Below are positions 4,479 to 58,828 of a stretch of 64,000 bases of DNA, piece by piece. Position 1 is the stretch's first letter; each line of letters begins with the position of its first letter. Position numbers and translations under genes: made by a program. Source of the stretch: Shigella phage PSD9; sequence record MZ561532, one strand, 5' to 3'. Below the pieces are notes generated by a model. That model searched no databases and was not told the origin of the DNA. It saw only the letters and a program-made list of their open reading frames with translations.

Positions 4479-6601
4479 TACATTTTGAATTTATTTGATA
4501 AAGAAGAGATATCCAAAGATGCAGCAAGGATTTCCATAGCCTCGTTACTTTCAGAAATGGATTCACTAACCAAGAACTGTTTAAAGCCGTCCATCAGGCG
4601 AACTTCACCAGTTTCCATCAAATGGTCACCATCGTAAACAGATTCACTGAGCTCTGAAGGAGGTGTTACGGTAGCTTCCATAAGGTATTTGTGAGATACT
4701 CTATCATTCATAGCAAAAGCCGCTACTTTATCAACCTTCAACAATAACCCACGCGGAAGGATAATTTCTGCTTCTTCGGCATATTCTGTAAGGTCACCAG
4801 GAGCGATAACTTTAACTGCTTCAGCACCTCGAATAACCATACCAATTTCAGCAATTCTATCTGCAGGACCTTCAGGTGCAATTGGATTACCAAACTCGTC
4901 TTCTTCCCATTCTACCTCTTCGTCATCGACTTCACCTACATCAGATGAACTACCACTAGCCAATTTAAACAACTCATCAGCGGAGGATAAAGAACCTTCA
5001 CCGCCAACAAAAACGGCTTGGTTGTCGAGGGCCATATAATTTTTACCAAATTCACCAAAGATGTTAGGTTTTAGTGAGGCTGACACAAAGTTCTTAAAGT
5101 AAAATGTTTTGTTATCGATATTATGGCGCAGAATTTTGTATGGCAAATCCTGACCACGATACAAAATAGTACCCTTAGGAAGTTTAATACCCTTAGTAAA
5201 TGCCGAGTCTAAATCCTTAATCAATTTAATAGCCGTTGTATTGTTTTCGGATTCAGGTTTACCTAAAAGGAATAAGTTCATAGGAGCATATTCAGCCGCG
5301 CAATATTCAATAATAGCATTGCTTTCGTCTTTGGTTAGGTCCTTAGGTTTAATGAGCTCGCCTGAATAAGCATATGCATCACTAATAGAATCGTTAACCA
5401 GTTTATAAACGGCTTCCATAGCGAAAGCAATTCTAGATGCTTTCTCTGAAGGGGAACCCTTAAAACGGGTACTCAGGTTATTAACAATTTTCTTAATAAT
5501 ATCCAGACTATTGGTTGTATTGATTTGCGAAAGGCCACTTAAAAGTCTATCGACTTCTGTATTAAAAAATGCCATATTATTAGAGTAAATTTCAAACCCT
5601 TGTTTATCTCTATTAGCATAATTTAGTTTAAATTTACTATCAGTCATTAAAGCGTGTGTGAGAGCAATAGTGTATCTAAAGTTGGCAAGGTCCTCGCTCT
5701 TAGATTTAAACTGAGAAGCCTGACGCATTTTAGTAATGGCACCTTTTTTAAAGTTCTGACTAATCTGTTCAATACCTTCGTTCTCAGGGCCTTCAGCCGT
5801 GTGAACCGGTACAGAAGCTTCAAACTCGTTATAAACCTGCAATTCTTTAGGGGACAAAGTTTCAGGCTCAGCAGTAGAATACTGCGCCGCCGCTGCCATA
5901 CGACGCGAAATCTTAGTACGAGTAATGACAGCCTTATCAGTACGTTTCTCTTCAACTTGTGCAATAGATGCCGCTACGGCTTCGACCTTACTTACAGCCT
6001 GGCCGGTTTTCTTAGAAACATACACTTCGCCAACTTTAGACTCAACTTTAGTATAAAGATCGGCATTAATTTCAGGCATACCCTTGATATCTTCAATATT
6101 AGCACCACGACGTACTAAAAGAACGTAGGTATGTTTTCCGCTGAATTGGAACATGTCGTCAACAACTTTAAACTTACCACCGGTACGAGCCATAGCCAAG
6201 CGAGCTAATACGCGCTGAACGGTAGGACCTTTACCTTTCATTTTCTTAGTAGGGAAACGGAACAAAACCGCGTCCATTTTAAGTTTGTTTATTTGTTCAT
6301 ATATGGTATCGAAAATGGTGTTCAGTGTACCGAGTGGATCGGTACCCAAACCACCCTTGAGTTCTGCCGGGGCGCCTTTAGCAGATAAACTCATTAGGAT
6401 GACATGGACGTACTTATCGCCTGGCTTAACCATTTTAATAGCATCGCCTTCAGACGCATAAGATACCATACGAGCAACCAGATTATCATTACCTGGTGCT
6501 TGGATAGAGAAAATCTGTGGAATACCGGAACCCGGTTTAAGATTTGTTACTGGATAGTTTTTAGCGGAATCACTATCAAAAACCTCATTTAAATTTTCCA
6601 T
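4478..6601 (-). CDS. alt: Alt-like ADP-ribosyltransferase, paralog 1 of 3
   Basis: 707 aa; C-terminal R-S-E motifs (ILYRGQ, FVSASL, EAEIILPRG); N-terminal ~230 aa near-identical to the two neighbours; start 3 nt after upstream stop. Confidence 0.7.
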   Translation of the reverse strand: MENLNEVFDSDSAKNYPVTNLKPGSGIPQIFSIQAPGNDNLVARMVSYASEGDAIKMVKPGDKYVHVILMSLSAKGAPAELKGGLGTDPLGTLNTIFDTIYEQINKLKMDAVLFRFPTKKMKGKGPTVQRVLARLAMARTGGKFKVVDDMFQFSGKHTYVLLVRRGANIEDIKGMPEINADLYTKVESKVGEVYVSKKTGQAVSKVEAVAASIAQVEEKRTDKAVITRTKISRRMAAAAQYSTAEPETLSPKELQVYNEFEASVPVHTAEGPENEGIEQISQNFKKGAITKMRQASQFKSKSEDLANFRYTIALTHALMTDSKFKLNYANRDKQGFEIYSNNMAFFNTEVDRLLSGLSQINTTNSLDIIKKIVNNLSTRFKGSPSEKASRIAFAMEAVYKLVNDSISDAYAYSGELIKPKDLTKDESNAIIEYCAAEYAPMNLFLLGKPESENNTTAIKLIKDLDSAFTKGIKLPKGTILYRGQDLPYKILRHNIDNKTFYFKNFVSASLKPNIFGEFGKNYMALDNQAVFVGGEGSLSSADELFKLASGSSSDVGEVDDEEVEWEEDEFGNPIAPEGPADRIAEIGMVIRGAEAVKVIAPGDLTEYAEEAEIILPRGLLLKVDKVAAFAMNDRVSHKYLMEATVTPPSELSESVYDGDHLMETGEVRLMDGFKQFLVSESISESNEAMEILAASLDISSLSNKFKM

Positions 6602-20967: not shown

Positions 20968-21074
20968 TACTTTCCGAAAAGACCGCCAATACATATACTA
21001 ATCAGAATTCCAAAACAAAAGCAGACAAAACCAAATCTAACAATATCCCATCCATCAGTACACGCTTCAATCAT
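20967..21074 (-). CDS. possible small hydrophobic peptide, 35 aa (not in ORF track)
   Basis: ATG overlaps o-spanin stop (ATGA); hand translation MIEACTDGWDIVRFGFVCFCFGILISICIGGLFGK; no independent support. Confidence 0.25.
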   Translation of the reverse strand: MIEACTDGWDIVRFGFVCFCFGILISICIGGLFGK

Positions 21075-21361
21075 TTGCACTTCTCCTCTTTTAGACCGGA
21101 ACGATAATAACATAACATAGATTTCTGGTCTTGTACATATCTTTTTACATCATTCAACCAAATACGATGTTCTTGGGAATCTTCAAATGGCATTCCAACC
21201 CAAGCTTTACCATCGATTACTTTAACCTGCCATTTAACATTATGTTCGGCGATAGGTTGTGGCCACGAAGGATGTAGTTGTTGCTTAGGCACTACAGGGA
21301 TGTCCTGGGCACATCCAACTAACAAGCCAATAGATAATACTACTACAGATAATTTAATCAT
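21071..21361 (-). CDS. o-spanin (outer-membrane lipoprotein)
   Basis: Signal peptide with lipobox LLVGC; 96 aa; ATGA-coupled to upstream i-spanin-like gene; T4 pseT.2 position. Confidence 0.55.
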   Translation of the reverse strand: MIKLSVVVLSIGLLVGCAQDIPVVPKQQLHPSWPQPIAEHNVKWQVKVIDGKAWVGMPFEDSQEHRIWLNDVKRYVQDQKSMLCYYRSGLKEEKCK

Positions 21362-21711
21362 TCTGTAATGCTCCTGAAGTCTTCTGTAAAGGAATCGAAG
21401 GACTTGTTGATTTGTTTTTCGACCAATCCTGGCTTACTTGCCACCACGTGCGCCTTCTTCGAATCTTTACGGAGCTTTTCATTTTCTACCTTAATTTTAT
21501 CCATTCGGGCATTCATTTCAGTAGTACGGAATTCAATATCAGAGTATTGACCACGAAGGTCCTCTACAGCTTCAGCGTTCTGTTTAGCTGTTTGCTGGGT
21601 TGTTTTCAGTTCTTCGGTAAGGGTATCAATACGGCTTGATTGATACGAAATAAAACCATAAGCACCTACTGCAATGGCTCCAGCTAAAAGGTAAATACTT
21701 AATTTAGACAT
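21358..21711 (-). CDS. i-spanin (N-terminal TM anchor plus coiled coil)
   Basis: N-terminal hydrophobic segment LLAGAIAVGAYGFI then charged helical region; 117 aa; T4 pseT.3 position. Confidence 0.55.
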   Translation of the reverse strand: MSKLSIYLLAGAIAVGAYGFISYQSSRIDTLTEELKTTQQTAKQNAEAVEDLRGQYSDIEFRTTEMNARMDKIKVENEKLRKDSKKAHVVASKPGLVEKQINKSFDSFTEDFRSITE

Positions 21712-55095: not shown

Positions 55096-55299
55096 TCAAT
55101 TCAGGTTACGTTTAAAAATGTCTGCCACTTCAAGGAGCTCGTCCTTAGTAGCGATGTCGTTGAGTATTTTATATCTGATTTCTTTAAAGCGTTCTTTAAA
55201 ATCCTCAGCCGCATTGATATCAAAAAATCGTTGGATTAACCGGAATTCTTTATGGACAGCTTTATCGAACAAATCAATATTCACTTTAAAGTTTGTCAT
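55096..55299 (-). CDS. hypothetical protein
   Basis: 67-aa ORF between rIIA and 39. Confidence 0.4.
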   Translation of the reverse strand: MTNFKVNIDLFDKAVHKEFRLIQRFFDINAAEDFKERFKEIRYKILNDIATKDELLEVADIFKRNLN

Positions 55300-55609
55300 T
55301 TTTAACTACCTCATGTTGAACATATTCTCTGGTAGAACCTAGTTCAGCCAGAATTCTTCTCATAGAACCCATTGTACTTTTGTGCTCTCTGTGGCGATAC
55401 ATTATCTCTAAAACCTTTTCCTGGACCACAGGAGAGAGCGCCTGGTTATCTTTAATCTTTAAGGCAATAGATTTTACAGCCTTAAGGTATTCAAGTCCCT
55501 TACCGCTTGTAGTCACTACTCCTTCATCTTTACAGTTACGAATGGCCGTTTCCATAAAGGATAAAGCTAGATTGTCAGTGTTCACTATACTGTTATCTTG
55601 CATAATCAT
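55286..55609 (-). CDS. hypothetical protein
   Basis: Start set at internal ATG (MIMQDNS...) with GAGGTGA SD. Confidence 0.4.
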   Translation of the reverse strand: MIMQDNSIVNTDNLALSFMETAIRNCKDEGVVTTSGKGLEYLKAVKSIALKIKDNQALSPVVQEKVLEIMYRHREHKSTMGSMRRILAELGSTREYVQHEVVKNDKL

Positions 55610-55664
55610 ATTCTCACCTCTAGATAATCCTATCATAACCACAGGTCTTTGTAAACCCCGAAAA

Positions 55665-55678
55665 GGGCCCGAAGGCCC
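55665..55678 (-). terminator. intrinsic terminator (GGGCC-UUCG-GGCCC + UUUU)
   Basis: Follows stop of the 53-aa ORF at 55687. Confidence 0.5.
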
Positions 55679-55686
55679 TTATTAGT

Positions 55687-55848
55687 TTAGTTACTTGAAT
55701 CGACCTTATAGACTTGTCCGCGGGTTTGGTAAACTTCGCCGTCCCATGTCTCGACTGTAATAGTCACGTATTCTGCAAACTGAGGTCTAGTATCAGTCCA
55801 GATATAACCGTATTCACCGGTGACGAGCGTAACCCAGTACTTTCTCAT
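55687..55848 (-). CDS. small protein, 53 aa (not in ORF track)
   Basis: AAGGAG SD then ATG; hand translation MRKYWVTLVTGEYGYIWTDTRPQFAEYVTITVETWDGEVYQTRGQVYKVDSSN; terminator follows. Confidence 0.35.
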   Translation of the reverse strand: MRKYWVTLVTGEYGYIWTDTRPQFAEYVTITVETWDGEVYQTRGQVYKVDSSN

Positions 55849-55892: not shown

Positions 55893-57710
55893 TTACGACA
55901 TCCAGGCCTTACGGAGTTGTGGGTCATTACCAAGGAGCATTTCGAACTGTTCTTTCCAATCTTCAGGTAATTGAACCACATCAAATTTAGGGTCTTGAAT
56001 CATTCGACGGTATTCAGCTTTCTCAAGAGAACCTAGTCCTTTGATATACCGAATAGAATGTTTTGGTAGAGAGTCCTTAGCTTTGGTATAACTAGGAACA
56101 TCATAGAACCATTCTTGTTCTTTACCAACCTGGGCAATAATTACAGGTGTTTTACAGAAACGTACTCGGCCTTGTTCGAACAATTCAGGCCATTGGCTAA
56201 AGAAGGCTAGCAATGATGGATAAATCGAGCCAGTACCATCCACATCGGCATCAGTCATAATAGCAATATTACGATAGTTAGTTTTCTCTGCAGGTTCACC
56301 AATAACCAATCCAGTGATTGCACAGATATCAAATAGTTCTTTGTTCTTCATGATATCTGTTGCTGTCATTCCCCAGGTATTCATAACCTTACCACGTAAT
56401 GGGTAACCGCCTTGAAGGTCTTTATTACGGACTTCAATGAAAGGACCCATAGCGGAATCACCTTCGGTTAGGAACAGGGTTGTATCAGCATCTTTGCCGT
56501 ATAGGTTAGCTTTAATATGCTTATGGACCTTGGCTTTAGAAGCTTTCTTAGCGGCTTTAGTTTCGGCAGCCTTTTCAGCTGCCAATTTACGTGCTAAAGC
56601 AGCTTCAACGATAGGCATAATCAACCCATCAACTTTAAGAATGGCTTGAGCAATTTTCTTAGCATCAATTTGGATATGATTGCGAATCTCACCAAAAGGA
56701 GAGGTCAAACGTTCTTTAGTCTGTGAATCAAAACGCATGTTGCTCATATCACGAATGAACATCACCATCGTAAGGCATTCTTTAACACGAGCTTTAGTTA
56801 CTTCAATTCCACGGTATTTCTTTTTAATGCCTGGCAGAAGGTGTTCACAAATATCATCGAATACACATTCAACGTGGTGGCCACCATTCTTGGTGTGGAT
56901 ATTGTTTACATAAGTCAGTTGACGGAATCCATCCGGAGAAGGAGTAAATGCCATCGAAACATTATCGGTTTCTTGGATTACAAAGTCTTCACCAAATTGC
57001 TTAGCATACTTTTTAAAGTTGCCATCTACTTTTTTACCATTAAAAGTAAATTGAATATCAGGATAAACTACGGCCAGAGTTTGCAATCGGTCTAATGTAA
57101 TATCCAGATAAATTTGTGACAGGCTATTTTCTTCGAAATGATTAAAGTCTGGGGTGAATATAACCGAAGTACCCTTACCTTTAGATTTCTTAGTAGACCA
57201 ACCTTTGTTTTCCATTCCGTTTGAACAGTTAACAGTAATCTCATTCTCACCATCAGAGGTGATGCCTGTGAACAAAACAGAGAAGATATTAGTTAAACTA
57301 CTACCGACACCATTCATGCCGCCTGTCTTACGCTCAGCGTCATCTCCAAAGTTACCACCTGCCTTTGGAATAGTCCATGCAGCTACAGGACCTGGAATCT
57401 GTTCACCATTTTGGTCGGTGACCATTGCTTGTGGAATACCACGACCATTATCAGAAACTGAAACCTGGTTATTCTTAATTTGAACATCAATTTTATTTGC
57501 GAATTTAAAATTGGTACGAATAGCTTCATCGACAGAGTTATCAATGATTTCGTCAATTAATTTAACCAGTCCAGGAACATAGTTTACCTGTGTAAAATTG
57601 CCAAACAGGAATCGACCGTGAGCTTCATTAGCACTGGAGCCAATATACATCCCACTACGTTTTTTGATATGTTCAATGTCGGACAGTACTTTAATTTCAT
57701 TCTTAATCAT
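55893..57710 (-). CDS. 39: DNA topoisomerase II large subunit (GyrB-like ATPase plus Toprim), unsplit
   Basis: 605 aa with ATPase motifs (VDEAIRT, DNGRGIP, GGNFGDDAER) and Toprim IMTDADVDG in one frame; T4 splits this into genes 39 and 60. Confidence 0.85.
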   Translation of the reverse strand: MIKNEIKVLSDIEHIKKRSGMYIGSSANEAHGRFLFGNFTQVNYVPGLVKLIDEIIDNSVDEAIRTNFKFANKIDVQIKNNQVSVSDNGRGIPQAMVTDQNGEQIPGPVAAWTIPKAGGNFGDDAERKTGGMNGVGSSLTNIFSVLFTGITSDGENEITVNCSNGMENKGWSTKKSKGKGTSVIFTPDFNHFEENSLSQIYLDITLDRLQTLAVVYPDIQFTFNGKKVDGNFKKYAKQFGEDFVIQETDNVSMAFTPSPDGFRQLTYVNNIHTKNGGHHVECVFDDICEHLLPGIKKKYRGIEVTKARVKECLTMVMFIRDMSNMRFDSQTKERLTSPFGEIRNHIQIDAKKIAQAILKVDGLIMPIVEAALARKLAAEKAAETKAAKKASKAKVHKHIKANLYGKDADTTLFLTEGDSAMGPFIEVRNKDLQGGYPLRGKVMNTWGMTATDIMKNKELFDICAITGLVIGEPAEKTNYRNIAIMTDADVDGTGSIYPSLLAFFSQWPELFEQGRVRFCKTPVIIAQVGKEQEWFYDVPSYTKAKDSLPKHSIRYIKGLGSLEKAEYRRMIQDPKFDVVQLPEDWKEQFEMLLGNDPQLRKAWMS

Positions 57711-57734: not shown

Positions 57735-57759
57735 ATATTATCCCATTTCACTTAAAGCA
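57735..57759 (-). promoter_or_regulatory. MotA-dependent middle promoter candidate (TGCTTTA-N12-TAATAT) for gene 39
   Basis: MotA-box-like TGCTTTA 12 nt upstream of -10 TAATAT; same spacing as the gene 31 and 32 candidates. Confidence 0.4.
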
Positions 57760-57762
57760 TAA

Positions 57763-57778
57763 AAGGGCCGAAGCCCTT
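57763..57778 (-). terminator. intrinsic terminator (AAGGGC-UUCG-GCCCUU + U-rich)
   Basis: Overlaps stop of the lipoprotein gene; followed by UUUUAUGCUUU. Confidence 0.5.
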
Positions 57779-58037
57779 AATCAAATCGAATGGTCGACTT
57801 TTTAAAGAATAACCCAGAACAAACGGTTCCTTCAACCCTTTTACCCGTCGGACCGACAGCAATAAAGCCTGTACGTTGGAAATCATCTTCAGAGCAGCCA
57901 AATAGGTTGTATCCTGTGATTTGAATTTGTTCGTAGCCATTTGCATCCAATACACGGGTAGCATTATCGGCATCAGTACAACCAACCAACGAAACGGCTA
58001 GTACAAGAGCTGCAATAGAACGATTAATATATTTCAT
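57777..58037 (-). CDS. small predicted lipoprotein
   Basis: 86 aa; signal peptide with lipobox LVGC at residues 17-20; own terminator. Confidence 0.5.
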   Translation of the reverse strand: MKYINRSIAALVLAVSLVGCTDADNATRVLDANGYEQIQITGYNLFGCSEDDFQRTGFIAVGPTGKRVEGTVCSGLFFKKSTIRFD

Positions 58038-58043
58038 AATTTC

Positions 58044-58220
58044 TCACTTAGTCAGCAGGTCGTAAAAACCGCCATTAACATGTTTAGGAGCCGAGACTAA
58101 CCGAACAGCCAGCCGATGGCAATCAGGGCAAACATCATTATCTCTTTCAGAGATTTTCTTGATTTTTTCGTATTCTTTTGCACAGTCTTCAGATTGGCAT
58201 TTGTAATCATAAAGTGGCAT
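58044..58220 (-). CDS. zinc-ribbon protein, FmdB-like, 58 aa (not in ORF track)
   Basis: AAGGAA SD then ATG; hand translation MPLYDYKCQSEDCAKEYEKIKKISERDNDVCPDCHRLAVRLVSAPKHVNGGFYDLLTK with CxxxxC...CxxC. Confidence 0.45.
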   Translation of the reverse strand: MPLYDYKCQSEDCAKEYEKIKKISERDNDVCPDCHRLAVRLVSAPKHVNGGFYDLLTK

Positions 58221-58221
58221 A

Positions 58222-58617
58222 TTATTCCTTAAAGTGGGCTTTCAACATCTGGTAAACGGTCCAGGCTTCAGAATTATTAGAGATAGTGATTTTAGTCAAA
58301 GGGAAATCACTTGGTTCGGACGGTTCATCACTATCATCGTAGTCATAATCACGGTCTTCGTCGCACTCAACTTCAACCATTTCGGTAAAAAATTTCCTCT
58401 CACTAGCGTATATAACCATATCTTTATTATCGCCGTAAACCAGGTCGAAGTTGATTACACATCCATTTGAAATTTTAACCGGGGAAAAACCTTCACCTTC
58501 AATAATAACATCGGCTACAATATTATTGATATCTCTACGACGGAATTCAGCTTCTGCCGCATCATCTTTAAAATAATACCATTTACCTTTTTCAAATTCA
58601 AGTTCTTGATTAAGCAT
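58222..58617 (-). CDS. hypothetical acidic protein
   Basis: Start set at internal ATG (MLNQELE...) overlapping upstream stop. Confidence 0.35.
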   Translation of the reverse strand: MLNQELEFEKGKWYYFKDDAAEAEFRRRDINNIVADVIIEGEGFSPVKISNGCVINFDLVYGDNKDMVIYASERKFFTEMVEVECDEDRDYDYDDSDEPSEPSDFPLTKITISNNSEAWTVYQMLKAHFKE

Positions 58618-58828
58618 TATAAGTTTCCTTCCAGAAGTCGGTGCCTTCAGCAGTGATTTCACGGAACACCGCATAGATAGGGTTTTCATCACCTTGGTTT
58701 TCGTATACATAAACCGACGATAAATGAGAAAACGTATCAGAATGTTCCTTTTGAACCACGATTAAATCAGGGTTGAACAGAACATCTTCAAATTCTTCAC
58801 GAGTCGAGTTCACAGTAACTTTAGCCAT
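58610..58828 (-). CDS. hypothetical protein
   Basis: 72-aa ORF with GAGAGGAAAAT SD downstream of promoter 58859-58888. Confidence 0.4.
   Translation of the reverse strand: MAKVTVNSTREEFEDVLFNPDLIVVQKEHSDTFSHLSSVYVYENQGDENPIYAVFREITAEGTDFWKETYNA

Follow-up and report, generated by a model that had tools for sequence, protein, structure and literature searches.

Gene 39.1 of Shigella phage PSD9 encodes a predicted early accessory lipoprotein that may act on a conserved component of the infected-cell envelope

Shigella phage PSD9 (sequence record MZ561532) carries, within the 64,000-nucleotide stretch analyzed here (hereafter the window), a small gene on the minus strand at 57777..58037. Its sequence identifies this gene as the ortholog of gene 39.1 of T-even phages, one of the accessory genes in their pre-replicative (early) region. 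The gene itself is already known, and its product, gp39.1, belongs to a large family that was found only in phage contexts. Our current hypothesis, which we hold tentatively and at somewhat less than an even chance, is that gp39.1 is a T-even early accessory lipoprotein that would act as a periplasm-facing binding or inhibitor module on a conserved component of the host envelope.

The 39.1 open reading frame (ORF) starts with ATG and runs for 86 codons to a TAA stop, giving the precursor protein MKYINRSIAALVLAVSLVGCTDADNATRVLDANGYEQIQITGYNLFGCSEDDFQRTGFIAVGPTGKRVEGTVCSGLFFKKSTIRFD. A first-pass annotation of this DNA had proposed a small lipoprotein gene at these coordinates, and the proposal is borne out by the ORF list, by the lipoprotein signal, by conservation (including identity to the protein of phage IME08 and a match to PHROG 902), and by the ratio of nonsynonymous to synonymous substitution rates (dN/dS). 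Lipoprotein signals were judged by a positively charged n-region, an uncharged h-region, a lipobox of the form [LVI][ASTVI][GAS]C, and a Cys at positions 15 to 35. Residues 1 to 19 (MKYINRSIAALVLAVSLVG; 57981..58037, minus strand) form a predicted signal peptide in which Lys2 and Arg6 make up the n-region and residues 7 to 17 the hydrophobic core; residues 7 to 19 include no charged residue. The lipobox, L17-V18-G19-C20, lies at 57978..57989 (minus strand), and the protein around the cleavage point reads MKYINRSIAALVLAVSLVGC and then TDADNATRVL. Cys20, whose tgt codon occupies 57980..57978 (minus strand), is the predicted site of acylation and of signal peptidase II processing. The first-pass annotation had described LVGC as being followed by a mature Cys; the lipobox is present, but the +1 Cys of the mature protein is the last residue of LVGC.

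With its two positive charges (K2 and R6), no charge from −10 to −5, and Cys at position 20, the N terminus passes the PROSITE PS51257-type rule. Two of the 372 ORFs of at least 40 amino acids (aa) in the window do so, namely 39.1 and the o-spanin gene at 21071-21361, while in 30 shuffled windows the number of rule-passing ORFs was 1.0 for lengths of at least 40 aa and 0.07 for at least 80 aa. Cys20 is invariant in 37 relatives and at least 90% conserved in 134 family members. The strict lipobox rule is satisfied by 183 of the 221 family members that were retrieved, and most of the others have near-lipoboxes. Around 12 members carry instead a Cys-less N-terminal hydrophobic membrane helix that looks uncleaved (P0127, P0134, P0144, P0150, P0156, P0160, P0164, P0167, P0174, P0176, P0188, and P0219). 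Since both a lipobox and a membrane helix occur in the family, its constant feature would be a membrane-tethered extracytoplasmic domain. Two further variants were seen, a member with a prepilin-like G-FTLVEM N terminus (P0216) and a member that is a tandem pair of domain copies (P0111).

For lipoproteins of Enterobacteria, Asp at position +2 leads to retention in the inner membrane, and other residues direct the protein to the outer membrane. Position +2 of gp39.1 is Thr21; among the 183 members with a passing lipobox, this position is Thr in 142, Ser in 24, and Asp in none. On this basis, transfer by the Lol system to the outer membrane is predicted for gp39.1.

The PSD9 protein is 100% identical to gp39.1 of IME08, 99% identical to that of JS98, and ∼80% identical to T2-type (Tequatrovirus) copies; the intact T4 ORF, whose identity was not computed, aligns across all 86 aa. 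The protein matches PHROG 902, a family of unknown function, over residues 1-85 (E 6.1e-35), and the 2-kb region around the gene is 91-97% identical to T4-type phages of the JS98/IME08 group (Dhakavirus). UniRef labels the 39.1 cluster "Lipoprotein"; an identical protein is present in GenBank, and phage records mostly give "hypothetical protein." Homologs were found in 1,066 phage records, mostly T4-like phages of Escherichia, Klebsiella, Shigella, Enterobacter, Yersinia, Serratia, Citrobacter, and Cronobacter, with further homologs in Aeromonas phage CC2, Burkholderia phage BCSR5, the 45-kb Pseudomonas podophage YA3, and Rhizobium and Sinorhizobium phages. When 1.84 billion representative proteins were searched with a profile, 2,239 clusters at 50% identity were recovered with E ≤ 1e-3 and 1,059 with E ≤ 1e-10. 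The best 120 profile matches are all single-domain proteins of 77-130 aa, none of which has a Pfam domain. Searches of gp39.1 against Pfam, NCBIfam, and PADLOC gave signal-peptide-level noise only, a Pfam scan of 134 family members returned the lipid-attachment model LPAM_1 alone (in 12 of the 134), and sequence searches of the PDB with the single protein and with the profile gave no meaningful match at E < 0.2.

The family was found only in phage contexts. Homologs were absent from 5,426 complete Escherichia coli genomes, and the bacterial genome scan matched two loci, both of which are phage DNA. The first is on a contig that encodes a primase-helicase and PolA. The second, NZ_JBHSCL010000010.1, is a 178-kb contig in the assembly of "Flagellimonas marina" (a marine Bacteroidota) that shows 98% identity, over the 6 kb compared, to Cronobacter/Enterobacter T4-like phages of ∼177 kb (JC03, Entb_46, and EC-F2); judging by this identity, it is almost certainly a contaminant phage genome and not Flagellimonas DNA. 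The plasmid matches were three only, two 117-kb rhizobial replicons and one weak Burkholderia match. The rhizobial replicons, NZ_KM659098.1 (Sinorhizobium sp. LM21) and NZ_CP132310.1 (Shinella zoogloeoides), are 117.5 kb each, which is about the size of Rhizobium phage RHph_Y2_17_1 (117 kb), itself a carrier of a 39.1 homolog, and the two replicons may be phage-plasmids.

Comparison of the gene with T4 and five other relatives gave dN/dS values of 0.03-0.2 with synonymous sites near saturation, which indicates that 39.1 is under strong purifying selection. The mature domain, residues 21-86 (57780..57977, minus strand), was analyzed with alignments and an AlphaFold2 model. In an alignment of 37 sequences, the invariant residues are C20, L30, G42, C48, D52, T56, F58, A60, G70, C73, K79, T82, and R84, and these positions stay at least 90% conserved in the 134 more diverse members. 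The conserved motifs are TGY, C-S-x-D-D, T-G-F-x-A, and the C-terminal G-T-V-C-S-G-x-x-F-K-x-S-T-I-R-F, the last of which hardly varies among phages whose hosts are Klebsiella, Serratia, Aeromonas, Pseudomonas, Burkholderia, and rhizobia. The model has a mean pLDDT of 77.6 (74-93 in the 10-residue blocks that cover the domain) and places a helix at residues 23-32 and strands at 36-43, 54-61, 67-74, and 82-85. The mature 66-residue domain is thus predicted to consist of one helix on a four-stranded sheet. Foldseek searches with this model returned nothing from the PDB at E < 0.5 and, among viral models, family members only.

The up-down order of the strands would bring the two invariant cysteines, C48 in the β1-β2 loop (57896..57894, minus strand) and C73 at the end of β3 (57821..57819, minus strand), to the same end of the sheet, where they are well placed for a disulfide. 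Based on the modeled secondary structure, the two probably form such a bond and staple the long loop to strand 3. The residues D52, T56, K79, T82, and R84 would cluster in the loops at the disulfide end and on strand 4. As the helix starts at the third residue past the lipidated Cys, the model leaves essentially no tether, and the domain would lie directly on the membrane surface.

The setting of 39.1 in other phages was compared by clustering the neighbors at 24 loci and in three metagenomic contexts. T4-like phages have 39.1 between 39.2 and 39, and it adjoins 39.2 in nine of the 10 T4-like loci compared and not in other phage types. In a second group, consisting of ∼177-kb Cronobacter, Enterobacter, and Klebsiella phages, 39.1 is flanked by a radical-SAM gene on one side and by endolysin/PhoH genes on the other. 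The remaining phages, namely Pseudomonas YA3, Sinorhizobium phiM12, Aeromonas CC2, and several metagenomic contigs, carry it in the company of small early genes or of replication genes, for example those for an ERF recombinase, a DNA ligase, or a primase/polymerase. No partner gene recurred across these groups, and we therefore regard 39.1 as an accessory gene that stands alone and travels between phages that are not related. An apparent second copy beside 39.1 in some Klebsiella/Enterobacter-type loci was rejected as a clustering artifact of a read-through fusion. This fusion (locus L030, 5001-5471) joins 39.1 to a small basic ORF downstream in a 156-aa product, which equals in length the 156-aa "Lipoprotein" of Enterobacter phage PG7. 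Some T4-like relatives also have a conserved ORF of 509-511 aa between 39.1 and the expected position of gene 39 (L012 5276-6811, L024 5498-7027, L026 5502-7037, and L030 5503-7038).

What has been reported for the T4 gene must be read in light of a fault in the T4 reference sequence. Over 121 nt, the reference (NC_000866/AF158101) and the old Sanger records M89919 and X06220 differ by eight changes from re-sequenced T4 genomes (NC_000866 5560-5680 was compared with MT984581 and HM137666 400-710), and the re-sequenced T4 genomes among those listed all share one common, alternative version at 39.1. In the reference, the changes turn the lipobox from LIGC into LINS and add one frameshifting T after the TDAD codons. 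The reference accordingly annotates a 65-aa "39.1" from an internal ATG and a 45-aa 39.2, whereas MT984581 and T4T (HM137666) annotate an intact 86-aa 39.1 and a 58-aa 39.2, and translation confirmed the copy in MT984581. The notion that T4 is a natural 39.1 knock-out was rejected, as the re-sequenced T4 genomes that were fetched have an intact ORF. The fault has already entered family assignments and guide design. PHROG lists the T4 copy as a "singleton." The CRISPRi-ART guides designed for T4 39.1, at 5565-5605, fall within the real ORF but on faulty sequence; the truncated annotation, the singleton listing, and the misplaced guides all follow from the faulty reference.

In the supplement of a genome-wide study, the T4 39.1 knock-down is scored "Not Fit," that is, without a fitness effect (PMC11879866). 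Because the guides were designed on a mis-annotated internal start and faulty sequence, this score is weak evidence, and functional-genomics results for T4 39.1 in general call for cautious reading. Taken at face value, it would mean that gp39.1 is dispensable for plaque growth in laboratory conditions. The supplement of a time-resolved omics study places T4 39.1 in the early RNA class and reports its protein as detected, in a late-accumulating class (PMC9697503).

Following established lipoprotein biology, the gp39.1 precursor would be exported by Sec, receive a diacylglyceryl group on Cys20 from Lgt, be cleaved by signal peptidase II, and be N-acylated by Lnt, after which the Lol system would move it to the inner leaflet of the outer membrane. 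There, the domain would sit on the membrane surface facing the periplasm and would work alone as a small, disulfide-stapled binding or inhibitor module, a step that we propose with low confidence. Its target would be an envelope component that is conserved across many Gram-negative hosts rather than the phage's own variable receptor; we prefer a conserved target because of the conservation of gp39.1 across host genera and its low dN/dS. Candidates would include a cell-wall-remodeling enzyme or a conserved outer-membrane machine, contacted on its periplasmic face. Until programmed lysis, the infected cell would thereby have its envelope conditioned, for instance through stabilization or through the exclusion of other phages. 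Our confidence in this conserved-target mechanism is low as well.

Several points weigh against this hypothesis. The lipidation and sorting of gp39.1 are themselves predictions, and the disulfide and the clustering of conserved residues were deduced from the order of secondary-structure elements rather than from coordinates. The helix-anchored family members would be held at the inner membrane, a location at odds with a target found exclusively in the outer membrane; they suggest that the target may be accessible from the surface of either membrane. The T4 knock-down score is, for the reasons given above, doubtful evidence. Finally, a literature search whose topics included gp39.1, the neighboring genes, phage lipoproteins, and JS98 found no paper on gp39.1 and no functional study or experiment on its role.

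A bolder and more doubtful proposal is that gp39.1 represents a widespread class of phage periplasmic effectors, in which a lipid-anchored, disulfide-stapled mini-domain acts on one universally conserved component of the Gram-negative envelope. This component could be a lytic transglycosylase, another cell-wall-remodeling enzyme, or the periplasmic face of Bam, Lpt, or Tol-Pal. If this is true, many unrelated virulent phages use gp39.1 to control envelope integrity during infection, and the absence of gp39.1 from the literature is partly explained by the T4 reference fault, which hid the lipoprotein signal. gp39.1 is one of few envelope-targeted early T4-type proteins without a known role. Its target, once found, would show by what means the host envelope is managed by virulent phages, and it could indicate a conserved druggable component.

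Of the other explanations considered, the one that survives best, although we think it unlikely, is that gp39.1 is a counter-defense or immunity-like factor whose domain neutralizes a periplasm-acting threat to the infected cell. The threat could be a virion-borne or competitor cell-wall hydrolase, by analogy with T4 Spackle and with immunity to colicin M or type VI effectors, or it could be an envelope-sensing defense. An extracytoplasmic, membrane-tethered protein that is encoded only by phages, from a stand-alone gene of the early region, and that is apparently non-essential in the laboratory would suit such a role. However, PADLOC gave no match at E < 0.01, no toxin or defense partner is known, and the fold matches stay at noise level; in addition, threats of this kind are diverse whereas the domain is very conserved.

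The first-pass annotation had suggested receptor blocking or superinfection exclusion. It is rather improbable that gp39.1 acts in this way, in the manner of Llp and Cor, as a lipoprotein that locks the phage's own outer-membrane receptor from the periplasmic face. Such a plug would stop further adsorption or DNA entry and would spare progeny from loss on cell debris. The resemblance to T5 Llp is considerable, since 39.1 is a stand-alone, early-region gene for a small lipoprotein with predicted outer-membrane sorting and a probable disulfide, and the short tether in the model would keep the domain against the inner leaflet of the outer membrane, the place at which plugs act. The family matches do not follow this resemblance: the Cor PHROG was hit at E 0.068 through the signal peptide only, and the PHROG search gave no Llp-family match. 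Classical T-even phages, including T2 and T4, use different receptors, and yet gp39.1 remains ∼80% identical between T2/T4-type phages and Dhakavirus. Its C-terminal motif is near-invariant even in Pseudomonas, Aeromonas, Burkholderia, and rhizobial phages, the dN/dS values give no sign of an arms race, and some family members are anchored by a transmembrane helix rather than by lipid. This pattern, which is opposite to that of a receptor-matched plug such as T5 Llp, argues against a receptor-specific plug. Exclusion by way of a conserved envelope target is possible.

A role as a lysis accessory, in which gp39.1 would be an extra outer-membrane factor that tunes the timing of lysis or the disruption of the outer membrane together with holin, endolysin, or spanins, is very unlikely. 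The observations in its favor are that the only other ORF in the window with a passing lipobox is the o-spanin and that the T4 protein falls in a late-accumulating class according to the omics supplement (PMC9697503). The gene belongs, however, to the strand of the early region and is distant from the spanin pair (21071-21711), and the annotated or called neighbors in the window and in IME08 include no lysis genes. Other phages carry it among replication or early genes. The first-pass annotation had argued that gp39.1 is not a spanin and had located the spanin pair at 21071-21711. Both statements hold, as the pair matches PHROG 812 and 739 (E 1.6e-43 and 3.5e-37), while 39.1 has 39.2 and 39 as neighbors and no i-spanin partner, its predicted α/β domain is compact and folded with no long periplasm-spanning segment, and its protein has no spanin PHROG match at E ≤ 0.1.

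That 39.1 is a chance reading frame or a decaying, functionless remnant, as its broken state in the T4 reference genome might suggest, has a negligible probability and is excluded by the confinement of the break to that reference and two old Sanger records (two fetched re-sequenced T4 genomes being intact), by strong purifying selection, by homologs in 1,066 phage records and 2,239 clusters, and by the protein reported in T4-infected cells in the omics supplement (PMC9697503).

The gene order in the window is that of T4: dda, dexA, motB.2, motB.1, motB, cef, goF, 39.2, 39.1, 39, rIIA.1, and rIIA. The upstream cistron, 39.2 (58044..58220, minus strand), encodes a 58-aa FmdB-type zinc ribbon protein (Pfam Zn_ribbon_8, E 2.3e-11). 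At the junction of the two genes (58038..58046, minus strand), the TGA of 39.2 (58046..58044) is followed by GAAATT and the ATG of 39.1, and a weak Shine-Dalgarno-like AAGTGAG straddles the 39.2 stop. As 39.1 has no promoter of its own and its ATG lies only 6 nt past this TGA, we place it at the end of the upstream unit, as its last cistron; the arrangement implies that it is co-transcribed and closely translationally coupled with 39.2. The gene closes a ...cef-goF-39.2-39.1 unit that ends in a UUCG terminator-type hairpin.

A terminator of its own had also been claimed for 39.1, and a consensus scan, folding, and conservation agree on a terminator-type hairpin, AAGGGC-UUCG-GCCCUU, at 57763..57778 (minus strand), which overlaps the 39.1 stop codon. 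Its 6-bp stem includes four G-C pairs and carries a UUCG loop, and UUAUGCUUU follows, in agreement with the intrinsic-terminator criterion. The local minimum free energy is −10.8 kcal/mol, the fold z-score in the local context is −1.66, and the U tract is interrupted. T4 and other T-even relatives keep the hairpin, and in them a G:C pair of the stem has become C:G through compensatory changes (GGGC/GCCC to GGCC/GGCC). The hairpin could equally be a stabilizer of the mRNA 3' end rather than a terminator. The U-rich tail, UUAUGCUUUA (57753..57762, minus strand), overlaps the MotA box of the next promoter. This is a predicted middle promoter for gene 39 (57735..57760, minus strand), assigned by its match to the established T4 middle-promoter consensus and given here as context outside 39.1; it consists of the MotA box ATGCTTTA (57760..57753), a 12-nt spacer, and the −10 element TAATAT (57740..57735). 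The arrangement of hairpin and MotA box is also seen in T4 and other T-even relatives.

Directly downstream is the topoisomerase large-subunit gene 39 (55893-57710, minus strand; 605 aa in the ORF list), which the first-pass annotation had placed next to 39.1. It is unsplit here, with neither the division into genes 39 and 60 nor the mobA/60.1 insertion that T4 has. Two conserved ORFs, of 118 aa (PHROG 5382) and 53 aa (PHROG 4369), occupy the ∼590-nt gap between gene 39 and rIIA.1 (55286-55848, minus strand) and were left unannotated in the IME08 record. Farther upstream, the goF ORF taken from its first ATG (58222-58710, minus strand, 162 aa) overlaps cef (58610-58828, minus strand) by ∼100 nt. 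Since the goF family match starts only at residue 38, the point from which T4 goF aligns as well, the true start of goF is probably the internal Met32 (ATG at ∼58617), at the end of cef.

Among known systems, the closest is T-even gp39.1 itself (JS98/IME08/T4; PHROG 902), which is the same gene in the same position between 39.2 and 39, with the same UUCG hairpin after the stop and no substantive difference. T5 Llp and T1/phi80 Cor are small phage-encoded outer-membrane lipoproteins from stand-alone genes, and Llp is an early protein with a disulfide. PHROG and Foldseek searches detected no sequence or fold relationship between them and gp39.1, and whereas Llp and Cor belong to families that track receptors, gp39.1 is conserved across many host genera under strong purifying selection. 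The Rz1-type o-spanin, represented here by the pseT.2-like gene at 21071-21361, shares with gp39.1 the property of being a phage lipoprotein with an outer-membrane sorting signal. O-spanin genes are found among the lysis genes, each paired with an i-spanin gene or lying inside one, and their products have extended, proline-rich periplasmic segments; gp39.1, in contrast, has no partner, is encoded in the early region, and is predicted to form a compact α/β domain.

Spackle (Sp) and Imm, the known exclusion proteins of T4, are made early, are located in the envelope of the infected cell, on which they act, and are non-essential. Neither is related to gp39.1 in sequence; Spackle is helical and secreted and inhibits the gp5 lysozyme, and Imm resides in the inner membrane. 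With regard to fold, the matches of the gp39.1 model to cystatin/PepSY/VirB8-type modules, including the colicin M immunity protein, are at noise level. These modules share with the model the arrangement of a helix on an antiparallel four-stranded sheet, and several of them are extracytoplasmic protein inhibitors or immunity proteins.

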